DNA of 64,000 nucleotides from Amphiscolops sp. MND2022 (GCA_964187785.1 OZ076409.1:14882001-14946000); one strand, 5' to 3'; counted from the stretch's first letter, positions 4,001 to 53,440 are shown. Program-made: numbers and translations. Notes: generated by a model not told the origin, from the letters alone.

Positions 4001-5960
4001 AAGAACGATTAAGACCCTGTGCTAGACGTAAAAAGGCGAAAGTTCTAGAACCAAAATTAAACGATAACAGTTGGACGGACTGCTCATCGGCCATTGGAAT
4101 GCAATGGTAGGCCTGGGAACAATCAAGTTTACAGAAGTACTTTTTCCCGGCCATGTGTTGGGCAGCGTCAGCAATTGTTGTTACGGGATGGTTGTGCTCA
4201 CCGTAATCGTTTTTGATGAGATGGTTTATTCCTCTCAGGTCAACTAAAATCCTCAATTTACCATTAGGTTTACGTTGAGCAAATATGGGAGAAGAGTATT
4301 TGCTGTGAGGCAAGGTAGTTATAATCCCGTACTCTTGCATTAAAGCTAACTCCACGAGCAAATCGTCCTTCAAATTTGTCGGATTAGGGAGACTTAGTGA
4401 ATAAACAGGTTCTTCATGTTGGGGTGTTAACTTAACTTTAAAATCAGTATTCATACCAATATCAAAACGATGTCTAGCAAAAATGGAGTTGTACTTTACC
4501 AGCAACTCCTCTACCTGTAACCGTTGAGACGGAGTAAGAAGCGAGTCGTCCCAGTTGAAGTTCTTCAGGAAGTACATCCGTTGTTCATCGGATTGGGACG
4601 GGTCAAGCTTCTCGAGCTCTCGCAGTGCCAGAATCTCATCATAGATTCGTCGCTCATTTGCGTTGAGTTTGTGTGGCTCACTGCACGTCTCGGGAGTTGG
4701 GTACCACTTAGTTGACTTCATTTCAGGGTTCACGAACAGTTGGTTGATCACCGCTTCCGCCTCATCTGGGTACTTGGTGATCAAGTTCAAGTGTTCGACT
4801 GGCATGGGTGTGATGTTCGCCGCCTGATGTGGTGTCGGTATGCGAAAGTGTGCCAGAGTGGTGTTGGCATCAAGTGTGAACGTGTGATTGTTCGGGTTGG
4901 TGACCTGGATTGTCGTCTTGCCCTCATCTAGGTCAACCAAAGCTGAGGAAACAAGCAAACACGTCTTTCGCATGAACCCAGGTGAGCCCTCAACTGTACC
5001 AGTTGTAAGTGAGATGTCCGCGTCACTGTGGACCTGTATCATCACTTGATGGAGAGGAGGGATCACTGTTCTAGTACTGGAACACAAATCAATTAAACCA
5101 GTTTTGAATCTGTTGTTCTTTTGCTGTCTAACTTGCATGGACATCATGTGATTGGGGAAGTGGACAAGGTGGTTTTTTATGTCTAAGTTGACTGAGTACT
5201 TTTCAAAGAATGACATTCCAATTAAAATTGTGCCCATTGTTGGAAGGATTAGGAACGTTTCTTCAAAGACTTTTCCAGCAACGTAAAATCTAAGTAAGAC
5301 TTGCTTACGCACTGGGACTAAGTTCCCGTTTGCTATTTGAATTTTGAAATTCGGAGGGGGGAATTCTTGAAGGATGGCTTCTGGATGAGCCGTTGTTATT
5401 TTTCGCAATTCTGCTTCAGACATTGCGCTTTGAATTGCGCCTGTGTCTAACAGTGCATGGTTTTCGTATTTATCAAACTGAAGAGGGACGTACAGCATTT
5501 TATCTTTCTTGTTTAAATGTAAAGTTGGACTAAGAACGTGAATTTCTGTTTTAGTTGCATGTTTGTTAGCTTTTGAAATGTTAATACTACTATGTTTTGC
5601 ATGTTTTTTAATACTAAGCCGTTTGTCGATTGTTGTGTGTGAAGTCGAGTCGTCGTCTAGATGGTTGGTGTTCATCTCTTTGGCATCGTCCACCTGCCTC
5701 ATGGTGTTTTGTTGCCAGTTCATCGTTTGTTCATCGTTGATTTCAGCGAGTGGAGAAAAGCGGCTGCTGTTGCGTTGACGTGCATTTCCCATCGCTTTTT
5801 CATCGTTGGAAAGTCTTCGCTGACAGACTTCATCAGCTTTTGGTCGTTTGTCCGCTGAAGGCTGCCATTTCTTCATTGGACGGTTGTGAGTTGTTTGTTG
5901 AGTCTTAAGTCGTTTGTCGCGCGTGTCAATTGTAGCGGGCGGAAATCGTGGCTGAATCAA
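873..5960 (-). pseudogene. pol: pol of element A (PR-RT-RH-IN), frameshifted near 2600 and interrupted at 1333
   Basis: 1128-aa ORF (LLDTGA, CKLDCSQAY, QYVDD, MCDAS) plus 424-aa integrase ORF (LHNSPVQGHPG..CENC, EIDIV, LTDKG, VERTH, GPY). C-terminal tail RYRLRENP ends at a stop near 873. Confidence 0.9.
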
Positions 5961-5966
5961 AAACCC
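5957..5966 (-). promoter_or_regulatory. Putative -1 ribosomal frameshift site G GGT TTT at the gag/pol junction of A
   Basis: X XXY YYZ heptamer immediately before the gag TGA; the pol ORF is in the -1 frame. Confidence 0.7.
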
Positions 5967-7139
5967 TGGTTTATGTCTTCATCAGAGTAGCTTATTTGTT
6001 CGTCGTCTTCAGTAATTGCTTGCATTGGATTCATCGGCTTTTGTTGTCGTTTTAAATCTTGTCGTCTAGCCTTGTTGTCGTCCTGTGAACTCGTTGTGTA
6101 TGGAATCTTTCCATATGCAGAGCTGCTTTCCTTGGGGACGCGTCGTCTGCAATCCCTTACGGAGTGGCCTGTGTAACCGCAAATCTGACAGACCAACTTT
6201 GGATTGTATTTTGGTTTGTCGGGGTCAGCTACTTTTTTCATTGGGATTGCGTCCTCTTTCTTTATGCCGTTTGCTTCGTCTCGTTGTCGGGCGCGACATT
6301 CCGTTTTGCGGTGTCCTGTCTTTCCGCAGTTGAAACATTGTCCCTCAAATCGTTTTCGTTCTGTCGGTTGCGTTGTCGTCGTTGTTGCTGGTTTAGTAGT
6401 TGTGTTGGTCATTGGGGCCGAGGAGGTGACCGCGTTAAATGGTTGAATTGCCGTAGGTGGCGCGACGTACTGCTGGTACTGGTACTTTCTCATCAAGTAT
6501 GTCTTGATTTTTTCCGGTGAGCTCTCCTCCTTATTGGCCATTGTAAGTTCTTGTTGTATTTCGATCGACTGGAAGTTTGCCGAACAAGAACATTTTGATG
6601 ATTTTATCTGCGTCATCCCCAAATGCTTGTTTCGCCGTCTTCTTCAAGTTTTTGAGGAAGTCGCTGAATGTCTCCGTTGTGGGATCGTAACGGGCTTGAT
6701 CCCATTTGTAGCGCGCTACCTCTTTGAGGTCCTCTTTCGCGAATTCTTTTCTGAAGAGATCGAGCACATCTTTCAGCGTTGTCAGTGGTCTTATTTGGAT
6801 CGATTGCCAATACTCGATTGCTTCGTCTCTCAAAAGGCTTTGAAAGAAATGAAGCTTGTTCTCCTCAGTTATTTTGTAGGCTAACGGGCTGAGGTGGTTG
6901 AGGAGAAGGTGTTCAAATTCGACGAGTTTGTCTTTCTGTCCTCTGAAATTCGGTACGTGTGTCTGCAGTAGTTTTGTATTTGTTGTAGTGCTCTTTATGC
7001 GTTGCGGGATCGTCTCGATGGCGTTTAACAGCCGTTCTTCGTTGCTTCTGGGAGTTGAATCGCCTTCTTCGTCTGAGTCATATTCTTGGTATCGTCTGAA
7101 GTTTGTGAAACTTGATGTCGGGCGGGTGGAGCGGGTTTC

Positions 7140-7153
7140 TGTAACTGTCACCA
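7140..7153 (-). promoter_or_regulatory. Primer-binding site of A (TGGTGACAG...), inside the gag ORF
   Basis: TGG directly after ...CA. The same (T/G)GGTGACAG follows the proven repeat end in element C at 21256. Confidence 0.75.
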
Positions 7154-9132
7154 TGTCGTACCTATGCTGTTGGGCCGGCTTTGAAGGACCTTTTGAGCTA
7201 GACGGCTGCAATTCGTTATTATTCTTGCTTACTATCGCCATCATTAAGTCCTTCAGTTGACTAAACTCCTGGTGTAACTCGTTAATTCGGCGTTCATAAC
7301 TTTCTTTTATTTCAGATAACTGAGAAGAGATATCTGAATTGTCGTTGGTGTCAGAATCATTTGAGTTTGCCTGAGCCCTGTCTGGATCTGTTGGAGAAGA
7401 TGTTTCTGACGAAGAATTTATGACTCTACCGCTCCTAAGTTCGGTACCTTGATCTGGGTTCATGTAGCCGAGAGAAAAGAATTATGAGTGAAGACTGGAT
7501 TATTTGAGATGCTGTTTGATGTATTTTACTGATTCAAATGGCTATCTCAAAATTCACTAATCTGAACTGAGATGTTTTAGAGATGAAGTCGTACAAGCAA
7601 GTAAGTCGTTAGGTGAGAATAAGGAAATTAGCAAAGTAGTTAGGAAAGTTCATCCAATTTTCATCGCAATCGTAGATGCACCAAGGAAATTACTCAGTTT
7701 CAGTTCTATAGTTTCTGAAGATGAAATAGAGATATATTTTCAAGTAGATTTTGGCGTGAACTATTCAACTGGATGGTAGCTTGTCGCAATTTGGTCTGAG
7801 TAATCGCTAATGGCGGTCCAAATTACAGCAGTTCACGTGTCTTTTCGGTTGTTAAGACGCTAAATCTCTTACCAACCTTCTCTCATTGGCTGTTACCAGC
7901 TGGTGTTAAAATGGTAAGTCACGTGACCGGTGTTGTGAACTGCCGCAAAGTGGCCACGCATCATGGTACATCTACATATGTTAATGGTGTTTAGTCATCA
8001 ATTTACAATGTCGCAATTGCCTGCACGCAGCATCATGGTTTCTATAGCAACTAAAATGAGCTCAAATCGTTCAATAACGCACTAATTTCAAGTCAATTTA
8101 AGATAAAGCACAAATCGGGATGGGAAAACGATGTTTTCCGCTTATTCGAGCGCCAAAACCAATGATTTAAAAATTGAAGATGGAAATTCGATGAACTTGT
8201 AAGAATATTTGCTGATTTTCAAGTCTAGTTTAGCTCTGGATGAAAATGCGATGAATGGTGGTCTTTCTCGCTCGAAAATCAACACAATTTAAACTGACGA
8301 TGATAAAAGGATGAACTCCACTTATAATTTGCCAATTTCCAGCACAGATTATAATGACGATGAATTCGGGATGAATTCAGTCGATAAACGCTAATTCTAG
8401 CACAATTGAATTTTTGGCGATGGGTTTAAGATGAACTTGTCAGTTAAAACAGCAAATACCAAAGCAATACAAATTGGCGATGAGTTTAGGATGAACTCAC
8501 CAGTTAAAACACCGAATACTAAGGCAATTCAATTTAGCGATGAGTTTAGGATGAACTCATCCACTAAAATGGTTAATTTTCAGCACGAACGAAATCAAGA
8601 TGAATTAAGGATGGGTTTACTAAACAAATCAGATAACCAGCACTTTCACTCTTTTTTAGGATGGATTAAGGATGTACTTTCTCATTTCCCTTCTACGCTA
8701 GTGAATACGATGATTAAAGGATGAATTACTGTCCTCTAAGAAATGAGAAGCACATTGAAATTTCTTTACATGAAATACAACGATGAATTTAAGATGAAAT
8801 TACTAAAATAAGGTCCCATAAAATCCGCTGATGGATTAGTGATGAAAAGTCAGTTTAACGTCCCAATCGTTGTTCATATGCAATTCCGGAGATGAAATTG
8901 CGATGAACTTCATTCAAAATAGCTCCAAATTGAATCCGCTGATGGATCTAATGAATTTATCAGTCAATTCGGGTTCATCGTTAAGTCCGCTGATGGACTA
9001 GCGATGAACTTCATGAAAGTGTTGTCACGACTACAAGTCCTGAGGCGGGGAGCTAGTAGAAGTTAACATTTCGTCTCTCTTGTATCTCTCGGTCCAGTTT
9101 GACCCGAAAAACTTCTCTCCCTTGTCGTGACA
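7154..9132 (-). repeat. Probable 5' LTR of A (~2 kb), including the gag start
   Basis: TGTC...GACA termini and an adjacent PBS. No second copy in the window, so the outer boundary is inferred. Confidence 0.62.
8119..9006 (+). repeat. 60-bp-periodic array of GATG-N7-GATG motifs with largely non-conserved spacers
   Basis: Exact motif at 8119, 8179, 8239, 8299, 8359, 8419, 8479, 8539, 8599, then 8660, 8709, 8782, 8830, 8891, 8992. Confidence 0.92.
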
Positions 9133-10895
9133 AACCAATATTTATGAAATATAGCACATTCGAGACTATTTGGCAAGATCATTTATGCGGACACCGGAAC
9201 TAGAGCGCTCAGTATTAAGTAAATATATATAACTCAAACTCATGGGGGAATGGGGATTAAGTATAAGTAACGTAGGGTTGCTCACAACCATGGTTCTTAT
9301 TATATGACATCATATTGCCCATATCTAAGTACATAAGACATAATATTTACATTACAGATATTTAGTAGATTATATTTCCATCATGCTGGCATGACATTCG
9401 TTCTCAGCGATCATTATTCCACTGTGTTCAAATGCGCAGTGGTGAAGTAATCTGCCAAACCTGCACTCTCAACTTGTTCATTTTCGTTTGATTCAACTGA
9501 ACAGATTTCGTTGTTCCTTGCAGCATGGTCGGATTTTGAATTCCGGAGACTTTCCTCAGCCTACATCTGTCGACCTTCCATTCTCATCTAATATTTGGAA
9601 TTTAGCAAATCTCTATATTGAAAACGAGGCTGCTGGATAATTCGTTCTTTTCATCTTCTCTTTCCGAAATTGATCAAACACCGAAATTACTGATGAACCA
9701 AAATTGATCCGAAATACCACGCAGAAAACTTAAGGAAAAACGGAACGGCAAAAAAGGATTTCTGTTTATGTTTTGCGTTGGATAAAGTTTGTTTTCTGCC
9801 CAATGCTTCAGCTCAAAGCACGCATTACGACGCCAATCGGGTTTTTTTTTCAAGAAAAGACAAAAGTCAGTTTTCGCACCTCCCAAAATGTGTTTTCGAG
9901 AATTCACAAAAATTGTACACTTCAACGAATCAGCAGCGCCGCCAAAATGATTGGAAAATTCACACACTATTTTTCTTGAACACCCTTCTTGAACATGTTT
10001 CTGAAAAGTCTCTGGATTCTCTAACGCTTTCGGGCATCTTCAAACATTTTTTCGAATTCATCGAACGCTTTCGCAAGTCTGGGAACGTTTTATTGAATTG
10101 AATAAATCGATGAAGAAACGAAACACTGATACACAAACAGTATTTGATTAGAACAAATTCCAATGATAATTATGTTGTTTTGTGCAACATTGTTTTGTTT
10201 CATTTTTTGTTTCTAGATATTTCTTTGGTTTTAATTTCAAAAAACGAGGACGTTTTCAAAAAGGAAGGAAGTCTTGAATCTCCTGAATGACTGAAACTTG
10301 GATACCTCTCTACTTTAATCACTAAAAATCTGATTCTGTGATGAATTGTCTCTACATTGCAATAATGTTTTTGGGAAAACTTATCATCCACGTTCTATGA
10401 AGAAACATTCTTATTCTCCATTTTGTTGGTGTAAAGTTTTTCTAGAAGGTTGTTCATGACACAATGACGTCTGTCTCAAACTATGAACAACTTGCTGCAA
10501 TGCAATTATCTGCAGTTGTTCTCTATTTTTGCTCTACACCTGCGTTGATCAAACTTTGCCCATTATTATTAGCGCCTTTTCCATTTACCAACTTTTTTCT
10601 CCTTCTTCTTCTTCAATCTTCTTCAATTTCGATCAAGCTCGTAAAACAGCCAATGACGAACCTTTGTTAAAATCAGGTGGCAAAACAGACAAAACCAAAA
10701 ATACGCCTATGCGTTTACTTCCTAAAAAATCGCTCTTTTTTGGAATCGTTTTTCGACAATTCAAGCAACATATTGAACCCAAATCTACTCGACGACAGTC
10801 CCGATTTAAATCATGGAAGAAAAAGAAAGCAGTCAAACCATGAGAGAGTTTTGTAGGTGTGACATACGAAGGTCACAACCCAAAAAGAGCAACAG

Positions 10896-19416: not shown

Positions 19417-21255
19417 TCGAAAAATGCTATTTCGTTAAATGAAAGCTAAATTTACGCTGATTGCGAAAGCCCATTTTGCATGAAGTTTCAACACTCCTCT
19501 TTGCTCCTGATTTCCACCGAATGATGAAAAATTTCTGTCAACTATGCAACTGTCATTTATGCAACGAGGCAATTCGAAAACTCGCAATCATGACATGTTT
19601 GGTGGTAAAGCGTGACTCGACAGCAACGTAGAATTAAGAAAGAAAGGACAAAATCAAAACGTCAAAGAAGTTAACGGAAGTTTGAAAAATAAGCGTTTTC
19701 TGACCAAACAGCATGATGTCGCAACCCAGGAATTGCGTGGGACCCGTGGTGCAGCCATAGTGCAGACAAACAGTCCAACAACCACGGCAAACTCTAAAAG
19801 CTGAAATGTGACCCAAAAACTTAAACTGATGAACTGACATTTAATTTTGTCTCCTATTTGGTTCATCATGAAGTTTTGTAAATATAATATTTAAAAATTG
19901 TTTGCTCTAAATGAAACCCTCCCTGATGTGCTACTGAACCCTAAAACTTCATTGAGAGCCTTCCTTAGCTCGTACAATGAATCACCCCATTGTCGAATAA
20001 GATAATTTGGAAGCTTTAATACATTAGGAATTGTCCCCATATAGTAACCTGTATCTTAGCGTGGTACCACTATGCGGTATCATGCGGATCGAGGAGTGGC
20101 ATATACTCGTCACTATGCGGATTTGTCAATATCACTATGCAGCATTATACGTCTCGGGGTGTGAAACATACTCGTCACGATGCGCTTTTGTTGGGGACAT
20201 TATGCGGCATCCTGCGGAGCGAGTAGTGACGCATACTCGTCACTATGCGTTTTCTGCAGGACCATCTATACAATGTGAATATGTGAACTAGTGCTATTGG
20301 AAACCATCTCAAATACATTCTGTACGTTATCCTAAGCATTTTCAAGGGTTCTTTAGTCCATTTTCAAACATATTTTGAATGTCATGTAATTGAGCTCATG
20401 TTATAAAAAGTATGACGTTATTTTGACGCAATTTTCTTTTTACCTGTTCCCAGCGATGACTCTGATAAAAAAAGAGTGTCATGATATCGTTTTTGGAGCT
20501 ACTTTATAGTAGATTGAAAAACTAGATCATTAAAAAACTCAAACGTCAGCAAGTGCAGTTGTCTTTTCTACACGACTGTAAACCTTTGATAACATTGTCA
20601 TACTCTCTGATCTTGTTCTTTTCGAGTATACAAGGAAATTCAAATTCTTCCTAAAAAACCTGAAACTATTTTTTCACCTGAAGCAATATGGGAAACAGAG
20701 GTAATAGATGTTCTAGAAGATTGAAAAACCCCTTCCCCAGATAGAAAAGTAGAAGTAACTCAAGTAGAAACACCCAATACAGGTAACGAATTTTTGACTA
20801 ATCTTGATACTGTAGTTCAAGAAAGTTTAGGTGAAAACAACTTTGAGAATCAGCCAACTGAACGCAGTCAGATAAGCAACGAAATTCAAGTTTGGACCCA
20901 AATTATGGAGCAAAAGAACAACGATAGGATTGGAAAGATGAGAGAGGAAAGGGAAAAAAAACTCGAAACAATCGTAAAGGAAATAAAGTCTAACAAAAGC
21001 GCATCAACAGTAACATATCCGAGGTCAGAAACCAATGAAATGCAAGATCAACAGCTGTCGGGATCCTAAACAAATAAGTCTCAGGAGTTCGCGCATCTAA
21101 CAACGAGAACTCAGACTCTGAAAACGATGATTATCCTCTTAGAGCCTCAAAAATGAAATTTTTAAAACATCCTGCGAAACCATTATTCCAAAACGAATCA
21201 GATATAGATGTAACAATACTTTCTAACGAAGAATCAGACAAAGAGGATTATCACA
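19417..21255 (+). repeat. 5' LTR of C (shared portion), ending ...TATCACA and followed by PBS GGGTGACAGGAG
   Basis: Aligns by eye along its length with 33500-35356 with scattered substitutions and small indels. Homology stops at the CA before the PBS. Confidence 0.88.
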
Positions 21256-22336
21256 GGGTGACAGGAGCCAACCGACTACTCCACACACAAGGCTCTCAAA
21301 AACTAAATGCCACAGTAGGATCACATGCAGACAAACTTGTCAAACTTGACATCAAAACCCCTTGACCCGGTTAATCAAATCGCCTTAGCAATAGAAAACT
21401 GGCGAGCAAGAACTCCTCACAGTCACTTTTTCACCCAAAAAACACATTAACATTTAACGGAAAAAAACGAGAAAAATGAAAAATTCGAATACTTCGAATC
21501 CTGTTTCACACAACACTTCGAATGCAACTAAACCTAACAGAGGACATGAAAATTAACCATTTTCACGCCCACCTCAGGGGTTTGGCGCTGAAGACATTCA
21601 AGAACATACAAGCACGACTTTGGAAGACATTCTAAAAGTTTTCGGACGAAAATATGTCAAACCAGAGTCCAGTGCATCAACAAAGCATAGATTCAACAGA
21701 CTCTCATTCGACCCAGAAAATCAGAAACTCCCAGATCTTCTAGAAGAACTTCAGGAGAGTGCCGCAAAAAGCGTTTGGGGATAACGCCCATCGAATGATA
21801 GAGAATTTACTCTATGCGAAAATGCCTCCCCACCTTATGAAGTCAATTAACCAAGCCTACCTCGAAAATGTCACAACGATCAAATCGTCAAACATCTTGA
21901 AAGAAAGATGGAATCAAACGGTCTAGAGGCAGACGAACCCCTTGTCAAAACTCAAATGACTGTTACCAAAAAGGAACAAAACACTGAAAAACCCAACAAA
22001 AAACAAAATGACAAAACCAAAAAACAGACTCCGAAAACAGTACCCAATAAAACACTCAAAAATGACCAATGCCGTTATTGCGAAGATGCCAGCGACATGA
22101 TGGCTGACTGCCCTGAATTAGCTAAACAGCGTAAAATAGAAGAAGACCTGGATGCACCCAATGCCCTATTTGCAAAACCCCATGAAAAAATTGCTATTTT
22201 GGTGCCAATATGGATAATCGACCATCAAATGGAATTTGACAGAAGCACAAGAGAAAGTTTTCGAAGAGTACAAGCAAGTTAAAAAACCAGTCAGACCAAA
22301 AATGGAACGACATCAACGTCGAAAGGTTTAAACTAG
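20688..22336 (+). pseudogene. gag: gag of element C (starts inside the LTR), ending at slippery site T TTA AAC TAG (22327-22336)
   Basis: Fragments 20794-21069, 21153-21365, 21908-22282 with a degenerate knuckle CRYC..MMADC; similarity to gag A (KINHFHAHLRG..AL.TF). Confidence 0.8.
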
Positions 22337-25300
22337 AAACGCCACGCCTTGACACAAAATCATCACAAAGACCAAACCTAGCTGATGACTGACAGCATCA
22401 GCTGAGCCCAAAACCCACAAAAACACCATTCTTTGGAAATGATATAACAACACAAATTTCTCAATAATCAACACTGGAAACTTCACCTGAAGACTTATAC
22501 GAAATCTTACACGATGCACCAGACAACTACTTCACAAAACAACAGACCACCCTGAAACCGACTCAACCCTAGAATTTCACCACACAACAAAAACCACATC
22601 ACAGTAAAAACTTCTTGCGATAATAAAAAACGACCCTTATTGGAAGAGGACCTCACTGAACACATAAAATTTGACACGGAACGGAACTTATCATACCTCC
22701 CAATTTCAACATCCTTGACATTGAAGCGAAAACGCCACAAGCACTACATTCGAATGGACTTCGAAAAACTGACACTTGATGGTCTTTTTGATACCGGGGC
22801 CCTTACAAGTGCAATCTCCGAACAAGACCTCAATAAAATCAAGTTACTAGCAAATAAAGCAATAAAAGAAACCGGTCCTCTACTAAACTTCCAAACTATG
22901 GTGGCCAATGGACAACTAGAAGTCCCAATTGGTACAGTTCTACTCAAATTTGAAGTGGCTGACTTCATGTTAAAAGAAAATTTCATCGATATGAAAAACA
23001 CCCCAAATCCATTAATCGGATTGTGTTTCCTTCGCGCGAAAACCGCAATTTTCGATGTCATTCAAGGCATCCTAACATTCCCGTATCTTTCAATGCAGCT
23101 CAAACCTGACACCCAAATATCAATACAACAGGCAACATGATTGTTGCTGAAAATATCTATACTTTAGAACCAGTCGAAACTCTCGCCATTGCAGGCATAA
23201 TGCCCCACCTGATGGATCATGACGCTACTGGAATAGTCACTCCATCGCAACAGTTTGAAAACCATGATAGCATTTTCATCACTGCATCACTCAGTCCTGT
23301 GAACAATTATGCTATCGGGTATCAAATGTTTAATTTTTCTAAACTACCATACACAAAAACAATAGACACCCATTTAGCGGCGGATTTCAAGATACTGACT
23401 CCAGAACAAATCAAACACATACAGCCAGTAGACCCAGCACTACTATCCTTCATGATACAAAATGAAGAAACAACAGAGGTCTAATGAATGAACTCCTAAA
23501 AGTACGCCGAAAAATTCAGAACAGGAAGCATACTGGTTCCCTACCCCTGAAGAACCAGGTGATCCAGCAACATACACTCCAATTCAGCAACGTATCTACA
23601 ACGAACTCCTCGAACTCAAAGAACTCGAGAAACTAAACCCACATGATAATGAAACTTTGACTGGTCTGATACAACGCTCAGCCCCGATGAACGACAAGAA
23701 AATGAAGAGATCCTCCTTGAGTTTTACGATGTTTTTGCTGGACATCGATTTGATATCGGCAAAGGTCGTGAATTCAAAGTAAAACTCACCCCCAATGATA
23801 AGAGACCTGCGTACAGCCAAAGTCTGCCAACGCTGATCAACTTCAAAAATGATGTCACAGTAGAACTTGCACTTCGGTTCAAGTATGGTATCATTACAAC
23901 TCTACCTTTTTCCAATATGCAAGCCCAATTTTCGCACAATGCAAACCTAACGGGCGCCTAAGACTCTTAGTAAACCTCAGGAAAATCAACAATCTCATCA
24001 ATGGAGATTATGCCAACAACAACCACCCGGTAAGCACCTTATCGGATGCAGCCCAACACATGGCAGGTAAAAAACTTTTCTGCAAACTGGATTGCTCTCA
24101 GGCTTACCACAGCTTTCAGATGGTAGACTGCCAATCCTTTCAAATGCTCGCTTTCAATTTTGCAAGCACAACTTTGCTTATCGCCGTCTCGCCCAGGGTC
24201 TCAGCATATCACTTTCTGCCTTTTCAAGCTTTATTAGAGAGTATCTGGACAGAGCAATTAAAGCAGACCAATGTGCCCAATATGTCGATGACATTGGCAT
24301 AGCGGCAAATGAAACAAAACAATTGTGTACAAATATCAAAACTGTCTTCGAATGTATACGCAATGCGGGATTGAAACTCTCCATGTCAAAATGCCATTTT
24401 GGAGTCAAACAAGTCGACTTTCTGGGATGCACAATCACACCAGATGGAGTGGCACCTCTATCCGACAAAGTGAAAAGTTTCTTCTCAAAACATTGCTTTC
24501 CTAAATCAAAAATGGCGTTACAAAGGTATATAGACTTTTAAACTATTTTTAAACTATTACCGAATTTATATACCACGCCTTTCGGAACGGCTCTCTCCGT
24601 TCTTCAAACTCCAAAGAAACTTCAAAGAAACTACCAAATTCTATGAACAAACAAAGTTAGTAAAAGACTTCAAAATCCTCAACAAACTCCTGGAAAATTC
24701 TTGCCAGTTAGCGTTGAAACAACCACTGAAAAACAAGCAACTTATAGTCATGTCCGATGAAAGTTTCACAGCAGCAGGATATGCTATCATGACCGAAGAC
24801 GACCTGAACCAAAAACAAAAACTCCAATCCAAACGCAAAACATATGCACCTAAAGCGTTTGGATCAAAAACCATCAATCCAACACAGACAAAATTGTCAA
24901 TTTCTGCAAAGGAATTTCTTTTAATATATTTTGCAATTGTGCGGACACCTCATGTGAGGAGGCACCTTCCAAGTAATCGTGTTCACAGACAATCGGCCTG
25001 TCGCCCGGTTCTTCCTAACAAAAATGATACCTACATCACTCTGGAAAACCTGCGATTATGTTTTACAAAATAATTTCGTAACCGCATATGTCACAGTGTC
25101 AATGGATACCGCTGCAGACTTTTTATCTAGAAGAGAAGTCGACCAAACCGAAAAATTAGAAAAGACCATTCGCAATGATATTCACACGAAAGCGATTGAA
25201 GTGAATATTCAATCATCTGCCATTGTTGAGGAAGAGCAAATCTATGTTCTTCCCGATGATGAAATTGACAAAAATCAATTATGGGAAGAAAGACAAAACA

Positions 25301-27001
25301 TCCGAAATCAAGCTCAGACTGAGTTACACAATGACACAGAGAATGACGTTTCTGAACTACAACAATTCCACAAACCTACACCGGTACTTTTCTCCTGCTC
25401 CTCAGGATACTTTAAAGACAATGCAAGAATCCGGTTTGTGCAGAATAATAACATAGTCCTCAGAAACCTGAGAGCAGAAACAGAAGGTAACTTTTTTGAC
25501 GATAATGAACTGGCATGAGACTACAGATACCAGCATTACCTACAAAACATAACACAAATAGAGATTAAACAGGAAGTTCTTACACGCAAATACTACACGG
25601 ACAATGGAAACATATCTCACTACCAAGTCTTTCTACCAATCCAACTCCTTGATGAATTTGTTCAGGCCCTGCGTGGTCACAATTCAAACCACCCAGGGAT
25701 CACAAAGATGATACAAGACGCAAGACAAAAATATTACTACCCATGTATAGCAAAATACATGAAAAAATAGGTCACTAACTGCCAAATCTGTATCCAAACA
25801 AAACAAATCAACAATGATCTCCTCAAGACAGAATTCCTTAATTGTCCAGAATGGGATCTTGGCCCAGAAGACCTTTTACAAATGGATATCTTACCCAACC
25901 TCCCACCTAGTGGAGATTATGACAACATCATCACGGCAAAAGATTTTTTCCAGATATCTGTTTGCTTACCCTGTACCACGCATCACTGCAACAGCAGTAT
26001 CAAGGGTAATTATGGATATATCATGCGAATACACATACCTACCAACAACGATAATCACGGATTTGGGAACTCAATTCAAAGCTCAAGTAACCCATGAAGT
26101 TGCAGCTGTGCTAGGAATTGAACTCAGATATCCAACAATGAAACATACCCAAACAATAGGACTCCTCGAAAGAACTCATTCCTCAGTCAAAACACACCTA
26201 AAAGCCGCAACAGGCGTATTTAGGAATACCTGGCATAAATACCTCCCATTGGCAGTCCTTAATCACAACACAACAAACTATACATCACTCGGTTGGAAGC
26301 CTTCACGGGTCTTCCATGGTAGAATACCGCACAATATCCTAGGCTATAAACTCGAATATAACCCTAATCCAAGATACCAACCGCAAGCAGATGTAGCGGA
26401 AGAAACTCAAAAATGAATGAAAACTCTTCCAGATCAAACTAAGAAGAACATCATGCAATCTTACTTTAAATACAAAGCCTTCTATGACCGAAAAGCGAAA
26501 GCAGCTCCGCTTGAAACGACGGATTACTGTTACATACTTAACCCAAAGGCTGATACACAAGCAACAAAAAAGCTATTTCGAGAAATCAGATGGCGCGGAC
26601 CATTTAAAGTAGAAAAAGTACTCCCTAACAATAACTACATTGTCCGGAGACTTGGAAATAATGAAACTGAGGACACTGATTATACCCCAATCAAAATGCC
26701 TGAAAATAGACGCCCACCGCCCGTGGATCTTCAAAAAATAGTGGGAAGAGCCCAGTGGAACAGACCACCGAACCATACAAAAACCATGCAAATTAAATTC
26801 CTCTACAAATCTCTGAAGATGACCATGATACCCAAAAAACTCAAAAAGAATCCAATAACCCATCAGAAGATGATTTTCAAAAACCACCAAAAAAATCCCA
26901 AAATTCCCCATTGCAAGAAGAACCCGTTAAGTACCCGTGGTGAAAAATACAACTTACGTCCCAATCCCAACCCAAACTATTCTGACTCACACAGATATTA
27001 A
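22337..27001 (+). pseudogene. pol: pol of element C, many stops and frameshifts
   Basis: LFDTGA, CKLDCSQAYH, QYVDD, MSDES, ITDLG, LLERTH, GPF, terminal KYNLRPNPNPNYSD. Confidence 0.92.
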
Positions 27002-27192: not shown

Positions 27193-30100
27193 TCAGTTCT
27201 CCTTAGTTTTTGAAGATTTCTGACAAATCTTTTTCGAATCCTCTCCTTGCTCCGTCCTTGAGCACCGACTGGGGGAAACACTGACGCGTCCCAAAATAAG
27301 ATCAGGAGAAGGAGTACTATCGACACTACTAGTCCGGTTTTCACTAGGTGTAGTAGTGGAAGAAGTCACTGCAGGTCTCTCTAACCAGAGAACAGCCTTC
27401 CTGTACCCAGTCTCTAACTTCCCTTGTAATGTCATTCTCCGAGGAATACATCTTTTCAAGAATTTCCAGATTGAAAATTTTTTATCTGACAGCAGCTCCG
27501 CCCCTCGTCCCAAAAGACGAAAAACGCGACTAATAGCTCCAGCATCTCGAAATAAACTTGATACATGCGGCACCGATTAGTAGGAAATCTGCAGACTGAC
27601 CACACATGACACGAATGAGCTCTTATCGGACTCAAGAATATGATTCGGCACCTCAAAAATAGGGGAGACCTCCACTATTGGGGCAAGACATAAACATGAG
27701 TTTGAACAACTGTAACAGCTCAGGACGACACTGGACCTCATAGTGCGTAACAATGAATTGAATCCAATCGTCATAGTCAGGAACCGTCCCAGTACGTAGT
27801 TTGGATACGAACGACCGGTATTGACTGACAGCTTTTACTTTGTCACTTGCCGAAAATAAATCGACTGCCACAAAATGGATAGACAACTTCTCAATAGCAG
27901 ACACATAAACATCCTCAGGGCTCCCTACGATCACCGGAGAACAGCAGAAAGTCCTCTGAGTAAATCGGATTTTACAATATCATGCGTCATTAGCTGTTTA
28001 AAAAACGGCCTTGCAAAAACTCACAGATTGCTCTATAAGTTTGCCAGGGCGAGGCAGCTTACTAGACGATAATAATCCTCTTTCAGTATGAACTGATCTG
28101 CAGCTTTAAATGGTATTTCAGTAGAGTCCAAATCCAAAGCAAGAATGGAATTCCAGTCCGAAATGTTCCCTAGAGTGCTATCGGGCAAATTATTTTGCAA
28201 CTGAGAATAGGTAAACACGGCAAATTGACTGAAAAGGCGGAACCCGCTGTCGAGTCGCTTTTTAATCCCTGAGAAAGCAGAATCATCTGAAACACACCAA
28301 ACGATTACAAATAAAACGCCAATGTACAACAAAAGGAACTTATTCGTGGAATTAACCGACTAATACGAACAAACAATCATTTAATTGGATACAAGAAGTT
28401 AATGAACACCCAACAAGTTTTCTGTTCTAATGCGCTGGTTATGCTGCATTGCACTGATCGAGCAATGACAACTATACGTCACTAAGCGGTTCGAGGTGTG
28501 ACGACTATACGTCACTATGCGGTTAGAGGTGTGACGACTATACGTCACTATGCAGAAATGAGAATAAAAGTGTGCGGCAGTAGAAAGTGCCAGAAAATAG
28601 ACACAAATGCCACTGCAGGACGGAAAAAGAAATGACAACTACAAGTGTAAACGTTTTTGAAATCTGACTGAGAGGAAACTTTAGACTTATTCACAAAAGT
28701 AGGAACCCGATAGAATCTCCATCAAAAAATGTTGATACACAAATGCGAAGAGTTGTATCTGGAACTCCTAGTACTGGTTGAAACTGTCTTAAATGGAAAT
28801 CCCCAGAAGGTGAAATAACTAACAGTGATCAAGGACGCATCTGATGATGAACAATCTGGCAAGATAAGCCGTATTCAGCCGAAAACATTCGTCAAGTGTA
28901 TTGGGCTGAAAAAAATACGTAGGATAAGTGATAGCAAAACTAACTATACAAAATAATGTGAGTAGAGATAGTTACCTCTTCCAGGAGAAAGTCCAAAATT
29001 GTTCTGAAATCGTGACTCTCGATAATTTGGGCAGTCGTTGTAGCAAGGCTGCGCACGAATTCACTTGCGCCAAGTGAATTGCCAATCGATGGAGCTTTTT
29101 AGTCCCAGATAAACGAGAACTTAGACACTCATAAAGTTCATCTTCAAATCCAATTAAAGAAACGCAGAATGGGAGTTCTTCAAAGAAGAGACTGAGGAAA
29201 GTAGCCATGAGAAAAAGGATCTTTCGTGGTAACAACAGTCCTCTCGGTGCCCCGCCGATGCAAACTCGGTGCCTTGTACTTTCTATCCAAAAGCAGAGAA
29301 TGACGTAAGATGCTGTGGTTGTGTGCTGTACAGCAAGAGAAAAATAGCCAGAGGACGACATGGCCTTGACACAGTAGTCCATTAGTTCTCGGAACAGGTA
29401 AACCAAAGTTCCCTGTAAATGGCGAGAGTGTTAAAATTTTATCTAATTGACTAATGTTCACAAAAAACATGGTGCTAATATCACTTAAGGATTCAAAAGA
29501 AAAAGAGAATTTTCAACTTAGCAGAAGAAAATTGTACAAAAAACGGGACTTACAAAGATACGCTGCTGACTCCAATTTTGCACAGACAGGCAGTCACTTG
29601 ATGTTAAACGGACTAGTTCATCGTACATCCCTGTCAGACTGGCTATGTTTCTTCCATATCTTAACCCAAACTCCAGGGTGTTGATCTGTGATAGTATCCT
29701 CTCCGTTGGACTGGTAGTCACACTGAAGTCCGGAATCGACTGCTGTCCTACAAGTGACCGGTGAGAATCAAGCTGAAGTGGTATGGGATCATTATTCTTC
29801 GCTTCCTTTTTCGCACCCTGTAGTGCAACACCAAGCAATTCTTTTTCGTCCCGGCCATAGAGAGTCATCCCCGGTATCTCCAGTCTTATGCGATGCTCTC
29901 TGATCAAGTGGGAGTCAAAGCAATAATGGGAGAAGAACTTCAAGCTTCCGCGATTCATGAAAGACAGCTCAACCTCACAGACACGGCACCTTTTGCACGG
30001 AGTCTTGTCTTTAACTAGGGGTCCTGTTGCTGGAAACTTCAAGACAGGGTGTCGCTTAAACATGCTTCCAGTCAAGGAGTCTTTTGGTCGTCTTCGTTTC

Positions 30101-30870
30101 CCTCTAGCCATTGTAGAGCCTTCATCAACCCCATGGGGAACGATGTCAGTGCTGGTATTGGCAACCATTTCTTCTTGGCTAGAGGTTGTTGCTAAAGTGG
30201 TGGGGATAACATCGTCTACGACCGTAAGAGACAAAGGTTGAGAGAGATCAGCATCAACTCCAGTGACGAATGACTGAGGGATCCTGCCGAGAACATTGCC
30301 TGCCTGGTAATGCTAAGGCTTGGGAGAGTAGTCACTGGATAAATAATCTCATTCGGAAGAACTTCGGTAGAAGGTGGATTCTTTATACAACCCTGAATAA
30401 TAGGATTATTTGGCACTTGTGTAGAGGAACTACCTTGAGCATGGAGTGAGTTGTCGTGCTGCCGGATTAACTGGCCAAACCGTGGCGATGGAGCTTGAGA
30501 AACATCAGGAGGATCCAAACTCCCAGGAAGGTCTTGGGCAAAGTCACCCAATGATGTCTCCATAGGTTTGGCAATGGCAGAAGATCCAGTAGCAACTGGA
30601 CTGGTCCTAGATGGTCAATTTTCTTTAGGAGGTTCATTTAGTTCGTGTCTTTCGCCAGGAGAGCTTGGGAGAGCAGGTGGCGGTGATGTTCCAACTGTTA
30701 TTTCTTCAACAATCCGTGAAGGGGCATCAACAGGAGAGTCTCCAACTCCAATAGGCTTCAATAAATGAGGCGTTCCGACTTTTAATGAAGTATAAACCTT
30801 TCGAGTGAACTAGAAGGCGTGACCTGAGCCAATCCTTGTCCAACAAAAACAAATTATCTGTTGTCTGAAT
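27193..30870 (-). pseudogene. Antisense spliced Zn-finger / hAT-transposase-like gene of element C (decayed)
   Basis: Finger remnant RCRVCEVELSFMNRGSLKFFSHYCFDSH; LFRELMD..SGYFSLAVQ..LCFW; PELLQLFKL..SC; GT-AG intron 29553-29413. Colinear with the 55262-59533 gene of D. Confidence 0.78.
28466..28556 (+). repeat. 3 x 33-bp tandem repeat (GACGACTATACGTCACTATGCGGTTAGAGGTGT) within the antisense gene of C, probably intronic
   Basis: Three consecutive units visible. Confidence 0.85.
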
Positions 30871-31589: not shown

Positions 31590-31830
31590 CAACAGATAGT
31601 ATGCGGCAGTATGCAGATTTACAGCAAAGACTACGCGGCAGTATGCGGATTGACCAGTAACAAGTATGCGGCAGTACACGGATTGACTAGCAACGAGTAT
31701 GCAGCAGTATGCGGATTGGCTAGTAACGAGTATGCGGCAAGATGCGGATTGACTAGTAACGAGTAGGCGGCAGTATGCAGATCTACAACAAAGAGTATGC
31801 GGTAGTATGCGGATCGATTAGTGACGCATA
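31590..31830 (+). repeat. ~7 x 33-bp tandem repeat (GAGTATGCGGCAGTATGCGGATTGACTAGTAAC-like)
   Basis: Periodic units; the translation repeats YAAVCGLTSNE. Confidence 0.9.
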
Positions 31831-32599
31831 CTCGTCACCATGTGGTTTTCACTACATGCACACGAAGAGATGAATTAGTGCTGCCAATGACTAAAAACGA
31901 GTAATGGAGCTTCATTATGCAATAGAACTGAAGAAGCTACGTATTCATTGCTACAAAAGACATGTGATACTGCTGATATGATGCATATGTGTGTGTTAAG
32001 CAAAGTAAAGAACCGAAATTTGGATGAAACTGGTTTAGATGAAACTTTCCTTGAGCTTCTGGCTTTTCCTTAATTCAGTCATGTAGTTTTGAACAAGTAC
32101 ATTTAGATTTTTTCTTTCGATGTGAAATTTCAGAAGTTAAGTTTCCGTTTTATTGAATCGGAGTTAGGTTAAAGTTGTTTACATGTCATTTGGATATTGG
32201 TGAAATGCTGTGAAATAAGAGAATAAGGTAAAATTCGTTGAAGTGCTAAATAAAACACCTTTTATGGGAATTGTTTCCAATCTACTGTGATTCAAACTCG
32301 TGACAAGAGTCTCCACAAAACCCTTATAAGGGCGATGAGGAAATCAAAAATCATGACATTCAGTTTTTCCGAGGAGTCCCACCAGAGACGAAAGAAAAGG
32401 AAAAACTCATCACCATATGGTCTTTACCTCAATCAAAAATCAGTTGATTTTGTTATCACAAACGTTTCTGTAAAATAATCCACCGCAGAATTAATCACTG
32501 AAAATCATAACCTAACCTGAAGCCAAAGATAATAATCTCCGAGTAAAGATGAACAACTCGCAATTCGACATAGACGAGATGTTCAACTACCTAAGATCC

Positions 32600-33500
32600 T
32601 CTCTATAATTGACGTGTCGAGCGAGTCTGGCAAAAAATTCATAGTGGAGCCAGGAAACGTGCAAGAATTGGACGAGAGGTTTCGAATCGGAGGCCCCAGT
32701 ACAGACGCCTTGTCAGCCTTTGCGAGGGCGGCAGCAGCAGCAACCCTTTTCCGTCCCACTCGCTTTCTCACCAATCGCAAGACGTCACTGTCACTTCGGG
32801 ATCCCAGATCGAGGGGCAATTATTAGAGTTAATCGACGAATATCAAAGTCACCAATCAATCTCCCCAACATCGTTCATCGATACCGAGTTTGAGGAGTCT
32901 CCAGATTCGCCTGACGACAAAGGTATGGAGAATAGCTTCTCAATGAACAGCTACGGTAGGCCCTCTGCTGCGATCTTGCCGACTCCAAGAGGAAGAGGCT
33001 GGGGTAGGGGTCTGGTCTCCGGTCCAATGCCTACCTATCCACCTCGTTTTAGATCGGGATTAAGTAATTTTAATGTGATAGGAGAAAATATGCAATAAAT
33101 ACAAATGGACATTTTCAAAAACAGATACATCATTACTCAAAATGAACCAACAGTGACCAATCCAGCCATGTCAACGGTCAACATTACTAACCCCGCGCAG
33201 CTGATGATACAGATCCCGCCATTCATGCCAAGCTTTTTCAAAGGTTCCAGGCGGCCATCCAGTTCAACCGTTGCCACAGGAAGTGTACTCGGTACAGATT
33301 ACTCACAGCACGAGTGTGCGCTTGCTAGACGCGAGCTAAAGGAACTTGTACAGATTGTCACCCACTGTGATGCCGAACGTTGCCGGATTCTGTAACTGGT
33401 GTGGTAGAACGTAGAATGAATTTGGTCTGGAGATGCTAGGAGAGTATCTTCTAGCGATGGCGTACGATGCTGAGACCGTAAGAGACCGAAATGTGCGACT
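32600..33500 (+). pseudogene. Decayed accessory sense ORF of C, homologous to ORF 53441-54220 of D
   Basis: Frame at 33385 reads GFCNWCGRT*NEFGLEMLGEYLLAMAYDAETVRDRNVR. It aligns without gaps to TGCMVCGHSADAIKREKVDWYVSRTKSRDEPEYITQIR (C, C, G, E, Y, E, R identical). Confidence 0.6.
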
Positions 33501-35356
33501 CGAAAATGCTATTTCGTTAAACGAATGCTAAATTTACGCTGAACGCGAAAGCCCAATTTGCATGAAGTTTTAACGCTCCTCTTTGTTCCTGATTTCCACC
33601 GAATGATGAAAAATTTCTGTCAACTATGCAACTGTCATTTATGCAACGAAGCAATTCGAAAACTCGCATTCATGACGTGTTTGGTGGTAAAGCGTGACTT
33701 GACAGTAACGTAGAATTAACAAAGAAAGGACAAAATCAAAACGTCGAAGAAGTTAACGGAAGTTTGAAAAACAGGCGTTTTCTGACCAAACAGCATGATG
33801 TCGCAACCCAGGAATTGCGTGGGACCCGTGGTGCAGCCATAGTGCAGACAAACAGTCCAACAACCACGACAAACTCTAAAAGCTGAAATGTGGCCCCAAA
33901 ACTTAAACTGATGAACTGACATTTTATTTTGTCTCCTATTTGTTTCATAATGAAGTTTTGTGAATATAATACTTAAATTTTGTTTGCTCTAAATGAAACC
34001 CTCCCTGATGTGCTACTGTACCCTAAAAGTTCATTGAGAGCCTTCGTTAGCTCGTACAATGAATCACCCCATTGTCGAATAAAACAACTTGGAAGCTTTA
34101 ATACATTTGAAATTGTCCCCATATAGTTACCTGTATCTTGGCATGGTACCACTATGCGGTATCATGCGGATCCAGGAGTGGCATATACTCGTCACTATGC
34201 GGATTTGTCAATTTCACTATGCAGCATTATACGTTTCGGGGTGTGACACATACTCGTCACAATGCGCTTTTGTTGGGGACATTATGGGGCATCCTGCGTA
34301 ACGAGTAGTGACGTATACTCGTCACTATGCGTTTTCTGCAGGACCATCTATACAATGTGAATATGTGAACTAGTGCTATTGGAAACCATCCCAAATACAT
34401 TCTGTAAGTTATCCTAAGCATTTTCCAGGGTTCTTTAGTCCATTTTTAATCATATTTTGAATGTCATGTAATTGAGCTCATGTTATAAATAGAATGACGT
34501 TATTTTGACGCAATTCTATTTTTACCAGTTCCCAGCGATGACTCTGAGAAAAAAAGAGTGTCAATTTTTCTTTTTTTGGAGCTATTTTATAGTAGATTGA
34601 AACACTAGATCATTCAAATCTCAAACGTCAGCAAGTGCAGTTGTTTTTTCTACACGACTGTAAACCTTTGATAACCTTGTCAGACTCTCTGATCTTGTTC
34701 TTTTCGAGTATACAAGAAAATTCAAATTCTTCCTAGAAAACCTGAAACTATTTTTTCACCTGGAGCAATATGGGAAACAGACGTAATAGACAGTCTAGAA
34801 AATTAGAAACCCCTTCACCAGATAGAGAAGTAGAAGTAACTCAAGTAGAAACACCCAATACAGGTAATGAAACTTTGACTAATTTTAATACTGTAGTTCA
34901 AGAAAGTTTATGTGAAAACAACTTAGAGAACCAGCTGCAACTTAGAGAACCAACTGAACCGAGTCAGATAAGCAACGAAACTCGAAAGTTTGGACCCAAA
35001 TTATGGAGCAAAAGAACAACGATAGGATTGAAAAAATGAGTGAAGAAATGGAGACAAAAGTCGAAGCAATCTTAAAGGAAAAAAAGTCTAACAAAAGCTC
35101 ATCAACAGTAAAAAATCCGAGGTCAGAAACCAATGAAATGCAATGTCAACAGCTGTCGGGATCCAAAACAATTAATTTTATAGGAGTTCGCGCATCTAAC
35201 AACGAGAACTCAGACTCTGAAAACGATGATTATCCTCTTAGAGCATCAAAAATGAAATTTTTAAAACATCCTGCGAAACCATTATTCCAAAACAAATCAG
35301 ATATAGGTGTAACAATACTTTCTAACGAAGAATCAGATGAAAAGGATTATCCCACA
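33500..35356 (+). repeat. 3' LTR of C (shared portion), containing the gag 5' fragment 34770-35359
   Basis: Second copy of 19417-21255; ends ...CCACA with no PBS after it. Confidence 0.88.
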
Positions 35357-51819: not shown

Positions 51820-52395
51820 CTAGATGTCGTGAGCAGTGCGATATGCGTGGTCACATTGTTCATTGATCAAAGTCGTTCTGGTCCTGGTATTTTGCTGAAC
51901 TTCGGAATGATTTTCCGGTCTCTCAACTGGGACCTCCCATCCCCTTCTAGTCTCACGGCCCGATCCGGCCATTAAGGCATTTTGAATCTGAGGCAATACC
52001 TGACTCTTTATAGCCTCATTAATGGCCCTTTGGATCTGTGAGCTGACATTATTGAACATGTCATCCATCTCTCTCGAGATCCTAGAGTTTAATTCACTTG
52101 ACAACCTGTTTATCTCGGCTTGAGAATCTAGGCTTGCTGAGTTATGGCCATAACCGGCACTTGTCCCAATTCCAAGGTTCTCATTTTCTGAATGAAGATT
52201 TGTTTCCTCATCCTCCAAATTATTACTTGCAACGCTATTTTGTCTCCTAATGGAGGTCCCGTTAAGGCTGTTATCCCTCCCTGATCCGTTGAAATGGTTC
52301 TCGCCTAGCATAATATCTAGATTTTCGAAGTCCGAGAAAATCTCTAATCCTCTAGATTTTCTTGCCTTCTTTTGCTTTCTAGTGGTAGGCATCAA
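51820..52395 (-). other. gag 5' fragment (191 aa) carried in the 3' LTR of D
   Basis: ORF stops 5 nt past the ...CTCACGACA terminus at 51825; basic N-terminus plus coiled-coil as in gag starts of A and C; same arrangement as 34770-35359. Confidence 0.72.
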
Positions 52396-53440
52396 GATCG
52401 AACCGAGTTGAAATATTGAATTCGTAAACTCAGAAATTTAACAGTGTAACCGTTTTGATATTTACTAACATGAATCAAAATGAAATTGTGTCTTCCCCAA
52501 GCGGGGTAGTAGTATATATACCGCACGGGGAATGACAAGCACATTTTTTACATAATTAGCAAATCACTTGATTCCATACCTCACAGGGAAATCCCCGACT
52601 AATACATTTTTTAGGGGACAACTTAGGAATGGAATTCATAGACCGTTTATCTAAACACCAACATCAAACAACATGTCGGCTAGCATCGTGACAATTATGG
52701 TGTAAACAAACTTCACTGCTTACATATTTTACAACTATGCAAGGTGCAGGCACGTGCCGACACAAGTTCATTTCATAGCATCTTCATAAATGGAATGCAT
52801 TACGGAATTCTAATAATGTAGCTGTATTCTCAAAGCACTATTTTCAATGAACGCCCGAACAGGGACTAAGTCCATAACATGTACAGCACGAATAAGGGGG
52901 CATGGAAAAGAGGTTAAATTATCCCCTTTTGTTAGGCAAGCAACAAGATTATTTAAACTACAAATGCGTATTAAATAGCTCCGGATAAATATTGGCTCAT
53001 TTAAACAACAAAGGAAATATTATATCAGAATAGGCCGAAACCGGCCACTTGACTAAAGGGCCATTATTAGAATAGTACCGTTCAGGCAATAGGCCTTATC
53101 CGGCCATTATAAACAAAGCATTTATAATTAGCAACAGGGGAGTGCTGTGATTGGTCAGCGGCCGTACCGAAAGTCACATCGCCGAGAAGGGACGTTTTCT
53201 CACTTGAACACGTTTCCTTCTCGCGATTAACTTGCTTTTGCACTTTACCGCTTTTCACTACAAATTAACACGTCGTTATACTGCACAGTATCTACATTCT
53301 AATACAACATCTCAATTTGGATTTTCCAAATTGTAATTTAACAGACTAATATAATGCACCAATATATAAAATACATCCGGTTAACTAGAAAGTTGACAAA
53401 AATAATGATCCAATAACTATAAGTTTTAGTCAAAAGAGTT

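Follow-up and report, generated by a model that had tools for sequence, protein, structure and literature searches.

An intron-bearing antisense gene of putative hAT-like transposase origin, exchanged as a cassette among Ty3/Gypsy retrotransposons of Amphiscolops sp. MND2022

How does a gene with introns come to lie on the opposite strand of a retrotransposon, at the same place in two diverged families, and why does its protein differ so much more between them than their pol proteins do? This question is raised by a 64,000-nucleotide (nt) stretch (OZ076409.1:14882001-14946000; hereafter the window) of the 1.07-Gb genome of Amphiscolops sp. MND2022, which contains several Ty3/Gypsy long terminal repeat (LTR) retrotransposons. 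Elements C and D each carry such an antisense gene between pol and the 3' LTR. An earlier note on this DNA proposed one ancient capture, inherited vertically and evolving fast under conflict with the host. Here, we argue that the single capture stands, on the strength of shared introns and identical deep trees, that vertical inheritance holds only between families, and that within families the gene moves as a cassette.

The exon-intron structure links the two families directly. In the window, the decayed C homolog stops at 27193 and pol at 27001, leaving a gap of 191 nt, in agreement with the ~190 bp first reported, and the intron that follows the zinc finger exon is indeed in phase 0 at the same position in both genes (29554 to 29412 in C; 57289 to 57389 in D). 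Mapping of all introns showed that four match between C and D in position and phase (0, 0, 0, and 1), with exons of 162, 45, and 27 + 1 codons ahead of the last exon. Only one had been noticed earlier because window copy C lacks ~260 nt (the end of exon B, intron 2, and exon C) and its last exon is interrupted by four stops, which hid two introns. The last exons of the window copies both begin cag/AT (C 28286, D 58371), and other copies read cag/AC; what is conserved is phase 1.

These junctions recur well beyond the window. Of the 18 to 21 copies per family of A, C, and D, nearly all have GT/AG dinucleotides at the ends of introns 1, 2, and 4, as do C and D copies at intron 3. In the gene of a third carrier, Element A (L043:5629-8219), the 162-codon exon and three of the introns (1, 2, and 4) are present but intron 3 is absent. 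At 36 further loci, the intron 1 donor was found in 35 and the acceptor in 31, and exon B was 162 codons long in 34. Natural intronless variants support the predicted splice junctions: in the database proteins P0110, P0155, and P0176, the finger exon runs straight into exon B and the sequence ends at the intron 2 donor, and in L182 the exons that flank intron 3 elsewhere meet with a gap of 0 nt. The gene is thus presumably spliced, and D may have a short additional upstream exon (55094-55109, acceptor 55313). Exact or near-exact intron absences were observed in separate lineages, namely these three proteins, L182, family A, and L143. Such scattered absences would follow if cDNA of the elements recombined with spliced antisense mRNA.

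Compared directly, the two window copies barely align (BLASTP E value of 2e-4 over 37 amino acids; no tblastn match of D exons to C at E ≤ 1). As each finger exon has at least 150 matches in the genome, we turned to intact copies. The earlier note had staked common origin on a significant alignment of the two proteins, and one was found: 16 D and 17 C copies aligned by hhalign over 706 columns with a probability of 99.75, an E value of 3e-27, and a score of 216, compared with 20 to 31 for reversed and block-shuffled controls. The Element A gene profile matched D at 2e-6 and C at 1e-5, with control scores of at most 25. Over 288 C-D pairs, the antisense proteins share a median identity of 20% and the pol proteins one of 71% (18% and 55% for the window copies), which bears out the claim that the antisense proteins are far more diverged.

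The five families branch identically in trees of pol and of the antisense protein, (A,((C,C'),(D,D'))), and bootstrap values on family-level nodes are 90 to 100; the presence of intron 3 in both C and D fits this topology. The congruence between pol and antisense trees on which a vertical history depends is therefore seen between the five families, but is lost within families A, C, and D. Taken together, the shared introns and the common topology argue for one ancient capture, and the simplest reading of the sequences is that it preceded the split of at least five related Gypsy families. When a finger-exon profile built from three families was searched against 1.84 billion representatives clustered at 50% identity, 644 matched at E ≤ 0.001, of which 275 reached E ≤ 1e-10. 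Ten distant matches that were looked up were all unnamed ENA proteins, and three distant matches had nothing above 38% identity among scored candidates in the Amphiscolops genome, which suggests that these three come from other species. At 37 of 40 loci chosen by similarity to distant gene homologs, integrase and reverse transcriptase (RT) lie downstream on the opposite strand. The remaining three, which lack pol, consist of fragments or tandem duplications, and no free-standing donor copy of the gene was seen among the 40.

We then consider what has kept the gene and how it has moved. Maximum likelihood (ML) ratios of nonsynonymous to synonymous substitution (omega) were 0.089, 0.066, and 0.078 for the antisense gene in A, C, and D (6, 12, and 7 copies) and 0.067, 0.024, and 0.039 for pol in the same copies; the highest pairwise omega of the gene was 0.31. 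These low values indicate that the gene is conserved by purifying selection, somewhat less strongly than pol, and fast evolution under host conflict thus found no support as positive selection. Within families, few of the supported antisense splits also occur in pol (1/12 in A with 18 copies, 1/13 in C with 17, and 4/10 in D with 16), and in each of the three the antisense topology is rejected when tested on pol (approximately unbiased test, p-AU ≤ 0.002, based on 2,000 replicates only). Such conflict arises because the gene is swapped as a block. Synonymous divergence (dS) of the gene is saturated in pairs of elements with an integrase dS of 0.02 to 0.12.

Individual elements show the exchange plainly. 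L073, L080, and L068 of family A are full length, with LTR pairs 99.9 to 100% identical and target duplications visible in L068 and L080. They match at ~92 to 99% over LTR, gag, and pol, yet are 62 to 70% alike or unalignable over the antisense gene. In the pairs L073/L077 and L068/L070, the genes are ~91 to 98% alike, yet parts of LTR U3/U5 are only 73 to 89% alike. Family C pairs L025/L036 and L026/L042 display the same pattern, and all of the swapped elements in A and C have LTR pairs 98.9 to 100% identical; the D pair L150/L059 is less clean. Young elements thus exchange the antisense gene as a cassette that is bordered at either end, whatever their LTR type. Exchange of old alleles in this way explains the excess divergence of the gene, synonymous divergence included. 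Allele-specific coevolution of the gene with its own LTR was considered and ruled out, since alleles and LTR types reassort. As separate observations, the spacer between pol and the gene in family A is rich in GATGAA and CATGCA/CATGTA motifs, and it is ~500 nt shorter in L065, L066, and L070, which form one backbone lineage.

Some features of the sample and the estimates weigh against too strong a reading. Omega is imprecise because synonymous sites are saturated, and it rests on ML and pairwise values rather than on individual sites. Moreover, the loci were picked to span gene diversity, which inflates tree length relative to pol and gives no allele frequencies. Copies with missing or partial pol or gene (L071, L082, L039, L034, L037, L052, and L057) were dropped from the trees; L163, L170, L173, and L181 were left out of the deep trees and the splice count; and exon E rows with stops were removed from alignment A6. 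L079 (G000:C7:33573453-33598452), whose own LTRs are only ~79% alike, is probably a postinsertion recombinant or an assembly chimera and was left out of the swap argument and the within-family trees. Within single elements, the antisense gene or parts of pol are tandemly duplicated in L034, L163, L170, L181, L153, and L174.

Three other histories of the alleles have to be set against capture followed by exchange. If a DNA transposon had entered several Gypsy families independently, the within-family incongruence of the trees would be accounted for, but position, orientation, exon lengths, and intron phases are identical, the five-family trees are congruent, and none of the 40 distant loci holds a free-standing copy; like the earlier note, which had argued against two chance insertions, we find this history extremely improbable. 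Vertical inheritance with rapid adaptive amino acid change in an arms race, as originally proposed, draws on the 20% versus 71% identity, on a gene omega that is 1.3 to 2.8 times that of pol, and on deep gene branches several times longer than those of pol. It sits poorly with an omega far below 1, with synonymous sites that are saturated between elements whose pol dS is 0.02 to 0.3, with sharp cassette borders and the same alleles on different backbones, and with the rejection of the antisense tree by pol in all three families. Within families, this version is largely refuted, and overall we consider it quite improbable. Finally, the gene could be functional and its alleles equivalent, so that sweeps or bursts of LTR-gag-pol backbones simply pick up any old cassette. 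A diverged block that is unable to recombine internally would move whole without any selection on allele identity, and the sample was picked for allele diversity. Replacement, however, requires crossovers on both sides and recurs among young elements of A and C, and many deep alleles coexist, and we regard neutrality as rather unlikely. That old alleles are retained and exchanged could instead reflect frequency-dependent conflict.

The predicted architecture of the protein suggests where it came from. Models indicate a BED-like finger, an RNase H fold of the DDE class without catalytic residues, and a helical region. The finger motif CxxC-x16-H-x5-H does not vary among A, C, and D (window C has lost one Trp codon). 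When the alleles of a family are compared, the finger ranks first or second among segments in conservation in every family; its loop differs between families. One homolog, P0150, passes the Pfam cutoff for zf-BED (22 bits versus 20.6). In the exon B model (predicted local distance difference test [pLDDT] score of 65), strands and helices succeed one another as in RNase H-like folds, and a second-look fold search with this model returned DDE integrases at Z scores of up to 5.6 and the hAT transposase Hermes at 4.3 to 4.9, the latter with the longest alignments (118 to 122 residues). Residues 1 to 112 of exon B align to Hermes 153-265 (rank 32 of 48,161 chains), and residues 49 to 239 of exon E align to positions 389 to 571 of the same chain (rank 5 of 48,161; Z of 5.2, 120 residues aligned). 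Two random top-50 lists would share ~0.05 chains by chance, and the hAT hypothesis preceded both fold searches. At positions equivalent to the Hermes DDE triad and CxxH, in a register inferred from the models and with residue numbers that we take to be those of the Hermes catalytic residues, the antisense proteins have E/Q/T-type, G/S, and P residues that vary between families. No inverted repeats of at least 60 nt flank the gene in the window, where no search was aimed at short terminal inverted repeats (TIRs).

Several results count against a transposase origin. The zf-BED cutoff was passed in only 1 of 15 homologs scanned (with a weak match in 1), and Pfam found no zf-BED in 23 members of the window families. 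Pfam searches with exons and alignments gave no hAT match (PF05699 and others), the zf-BED of P0150 being the sole match above cutoff, and sequence and profile searches of the PDB with the antisense protein gave nothing meaningful. Alignment by hhalign to hAT proteins of the same genome was not significant (E of 0.04 to 0.63), and word-based protein searches returned nothing for exon E and, for the finger exon, only unnamed ENA proteins resembling that of C. The fold scores are middling (Z of 4.5 to 5.6), the colinear Hermes matches at a Z of 4.5 to 5.2 fall short of the level at which a merely common arrangement would be ruled out, the exon E model is poor (pLDDT of 50) and yielded only noise in Foldseek, and exon B matches DegV domains at a Z of 6.3 in the wide search and retroviral integrases at scores as high as or higher than those of Hermes. 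It is possible, therefore, that a host gene was captured or an integrase duplicated and that the RNase H-like fold is convergent, as the lack of a significant hAT sequence match and the lead of integrases in the second-look list for exon B would have it. We judge this to be on the unlikely side, given the BED-positive homolog P0150, the two independent exon models that match one Hermes chain in order, and the introns and large helical C-terminal half, which integrases lack. On balance, the modeled architecture makes it likely that the antisense protein is a dead hAT-like transposase.

If the finger binds DNA, the elements themselves offer candidate targets. Family-specific motif arrays with a roughly 11-bp phase occur in noncoding parts of three of the five families (A, C, and C'). 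In family C, CCGCA[TC] reaches ~8/kb upstream of the gene and in intron 4, compared with 0.4/kb in exons and at most 0.8/kb in other families, and the strict form is present in intron 4 of all 20 C loci fetched. GATGAA occurs at 9/kb in the family A LTR, with 11 bp as the commonest spacing, and CAGCATA arrays lie in intron 2 of family C'. These arrays are predicted targets of the finger. On the other side, D and D' have no clear motif array, tandem arrays can form without any binding protein, and cassette alleles do not cosegregate with LTR type, so that no allele-specific lock-and-key with the LTR exists. A GGCC motif tried for family D was rejected, as it is not enriched over exons and gives just some 10-bp-spaced pairs in LTRs.

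We therefore propose, as a moderately probable account, that this is one intron-bearing antisense gene of hAT-like transposase origin that has lost catalysis, serves the element as its own DNA-binding activator or anti-silencer, and persists under purifying selection and cassette exchange. Homology, common introns, constant position, agreement of the family-level trees, low omega, and block exchange are demonstrated; the origin, DNA binding, activator or anti-silencer function, and cause of selection are predictions. The history would begin with a DNA transposon that landed head-on between pol and the 3' LTR of an ancestral Gypsy element, or with the capture of its gene there. Introns could have been kept because packaging takes RNA of the opposite strand, from which they cannot be spliced out, and occasional exact losses would result from recombination with spliced antisense mRNA. 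With catalysis lost, the BED-like finger would bind the ~11-bp-phased family motifs in the LTR, the upstream region, and the introns, and the dead transposase body would oligomerize, so that the element stays transcribed. Template switches of reverse transcriptase in homologous flanks would move the whole gene, as alleles are too diverged for internal recombination, and rare alleles would probably be favored through escape from a host countermeasure (small RNAs or protein) tuned to the common ones.

With the same origin and the same exchange, the protein might instead act in integration or particle biology (chromatin tethering of the integration complex or nuclear import) or in exclusion between elements. 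Its DNA-binding architecture is transposase-like, allelic differences are greatest in the helical body and smallest in the finger, a pattern that fits self/non-self interference too, and D and D' lack clear arrays. Alleles that move freely among pol/integrase backbones nevertheless speak against a tight integrase partnership, and the arrays in introns and upstream regions resemble VANC targets; we think such a role unlikely. Returning to the anti-silencer proposal, its broadest form, in which a clade of animal retrotransposons turned a DNA transposase into a spliced antisense anti-silencing factor of its own whose many ancient alleles circulate as cassettes under frequency-dependent selection, is offered tentatively, as possible more than probable. 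If true, the locus would be a transposon-level counterpart of an immune evasion or incompatibility locus.

The carriers are Ty3/Gypsy LTR retrotransposons by their pol order (protease, RT, RNase H, integrase), and copies of A, C, and D have paired LTRs with TG...CA ends and short target duplications, although the ends of window copy C are decayed. Element C (19421-35354, + strand) is decayed, with LTRs 92% alike and 15 stops among the mapped codons of pol. Elements D and A lie on the - strand; the LTRs of D are 99.8% alike, the partner LTR lying beyond the window end, and those of A, at the left window edge, are 98.6% alike. Coordinates are collected in the table.

Table. Features of Elements A, C, and D in window coordinates
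Feature	Coordinates	Strand	Remarks
Element A pol, gag, and 5' LTR (7154-9399)	1333..9399	-	Antisense gene just left of window
Element C 5' LTR	19421..21255 (ends approximate)	+	92% direct repeat with 33503-35354
Element C gag-pol, decayed	21256..27001	+	Protease, RT, RNase H, and integrase pieces; pol stop 27001
C last exon E	27193..28286	-	Phase 1 acceptor; 4 internal stops
C intron 4	28287..28823	-	Contains 33-bp tandem array (~28466-28553) related to family C motif arrays
C exon D	28824..28905	-	27 codons + 1 nt
C exon B, RNase H-like (predicted)	28982..29412	-	Frameshifted; 3' truncated by ~260-nt deletion also taking exon C
C intron 1, phase 0	29413..29553	-	Between finger exon and exon B; the intron of the earlier note
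C finger exon	29554..30843 (5' end approximate)	-	Broken low-complexity N-terminal part, CxxC-x16-H-x5-H finger, helical domain
33-bp tandem array with CCGCAT motifs	31598..31852		Upstream of C antisense gene
C extra sense open reading frame (ORF), decayed	32613..33400	+	Homologous to D 53441-54262
Element C 3' LTR	33503..35354	+	Repeat partner of 5' LTR
Element D 3' LTR	51824..53531	-	99.8% identity to partner outside window
D extra sense ORF	53441..54262	-	273 codons stop to stop; head-to-head with antisense gene
D finger exon	55253..57289	+	Open frame of 689 aa
D exon B	57389..57874	+	162 codons; predicted RNase H-like fold
D exon C	57971..58105	+	45 codons
D exon D	58216..58297	+	27 codons + 1 nt
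D last exon E	58371..59533	+	Predicted helical; weak alignment to Hermes 389-571
Element D pol	59768..64000, running past window end	-	Stop 234 nt from antisense stop

A second accessory ORF, on the pol strand, just within the 3' LTR boundary and overlapping that LTR, lies head-to-head with the antisense gene in C and D and is homologous between them (tblastn E down to 2e-7). It is open over 288 to 373 codons in seven of eight extended C and D copies and encodes an acidic N terminus and a CxxC; none of at least 150 codons was found at the equivalent place in three A copies. The apparent gag start ORF begins several hundred bases within the LTR (window 51820-52437 and 6531-7481, both -; extended C copies L025 to L042), and solo and 3' LTRs therefore hold a truncated copy of it. 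Element B (11040-16525, +) is a different, decayed Gypsy element, in whose vicinity tblastn with D exons, the method applied there in place of profiles, found no antisense homolog. Host-like ORFs with C-type lectin-like (below the Pfam cutoff) and PAN domains, weak matches that point to an animal genome, occupy 17240-18641 (-), and fragments at 36164-38063 (-) and 44395-45054 (+) resemble, judged by eye, a BEL/Pao element and a LINE ORF1-like protein.

Retroviruses offer parallels for both antisense regulation and module exchange: HBZ of human T-cell leukemia virus (HTLV) is an antisense regulatory protein, and env exchange among endogenous retroviruses is module exchange by template switching. 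The present protein is unrelated to HBZ, and no env-like gene was identified in the Gypsy elements here. HTLV antisense genes are mentioned in PMC11963269, and PMC6431247 describes other accessory domains in giant Gypsy elements of planarians.

Plant Ty3/gypsy elements come closest in layout. Their antisense additional ORFs (Retand TRP28/PF04195, maize Grande gene23, and RIRE2) are described as being of open origin and function (PMC7264820, PMC11963269). They too lie between pol and the 3' LTR with family-specific tandem repeats nearby and a proposed nuclear regulatory role, and they are kept in most copies; the count here is of loci picked by the gene, 37 of 40 of which have pol opposite and downstream. 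The gene described here differs in its non-plant host, its three to four conserved introns, its candidate hAT-like origin, and its cassette-swapped alleles. Pfam scans of the antisense gene gave no match to PF04195, and the word "intron" is absent from the Retand paper as far as its text was available (PMC7264820).

For function, the nearest model is VANC of Arabidopsis VANDAL transposons, for which, according to PMC5735166, binding and anti-silencing have been demonstrated, with family-specific short motifs in noncoding tandem arrays as targets. Both are transposon-encoded accessory genes with introns, and in both cases, here in families A, C, and C', motif arrays lie in noncoding regions, including introns of the accessory gene (PMC5735166). 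VANDALs, however, are DNA transposons, and anti-silencing is only predicted here; Pfam scans turned up no homology to VANC. Sequence-specific anti-silencers are established for plant DNA transposons, and in the literature covered, which excludes most subscription papers and Repbase reports, we found no equivalent in a non-plant retrotransposon; for non-plant Gypsy clades, that literature likewise yielded no antisense gene that is transposase-like and has several introns, and no swapping of its alleles.

For origin, a recent preprint holds that loss of catalytic residues turns transposases into sequence-specific regulators, as in Spm TnpA and dead domesticated transposases, the adopter being the same DNA transposon or the host (bioRxiv 10.64898/2026.08.24.746577). 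Here, a retrotransposon would be the adopter, and "retrotransposon" does not occur as a whole word in the preprint as far as its text was available. Hermes, whose BED domains bind short subterminal repeats, has the order of BED-type finger, helical domain, RNase H-like core, and helical region that is predicted for the antisense protein (PDB 8edg; PMC10368747). Unlike Hermes, the antisense protein has no DDE triad or CxxH at equivalent places, a CCHH rather than a CCHC finger, and a long acidic low-complexity N terminus; no TIRs of 60 nt or more were seen in the window, and the sequence match is below significance. Thus, antisense accessory ORFs in plant Gypsy elements and dead-transposase regulators were already known, and what appears to be new, as judged from the literature covered, is a multi-intron, transposase-like version with allele swapping in a non-plant Gypsy clade. 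The case offers a candidate origin, a dead transposase, for an antisense accessory gene, together with a predicted DNA target per family, and because near-identical element pairs differ in the antisense gene alone, its function is directly testable.

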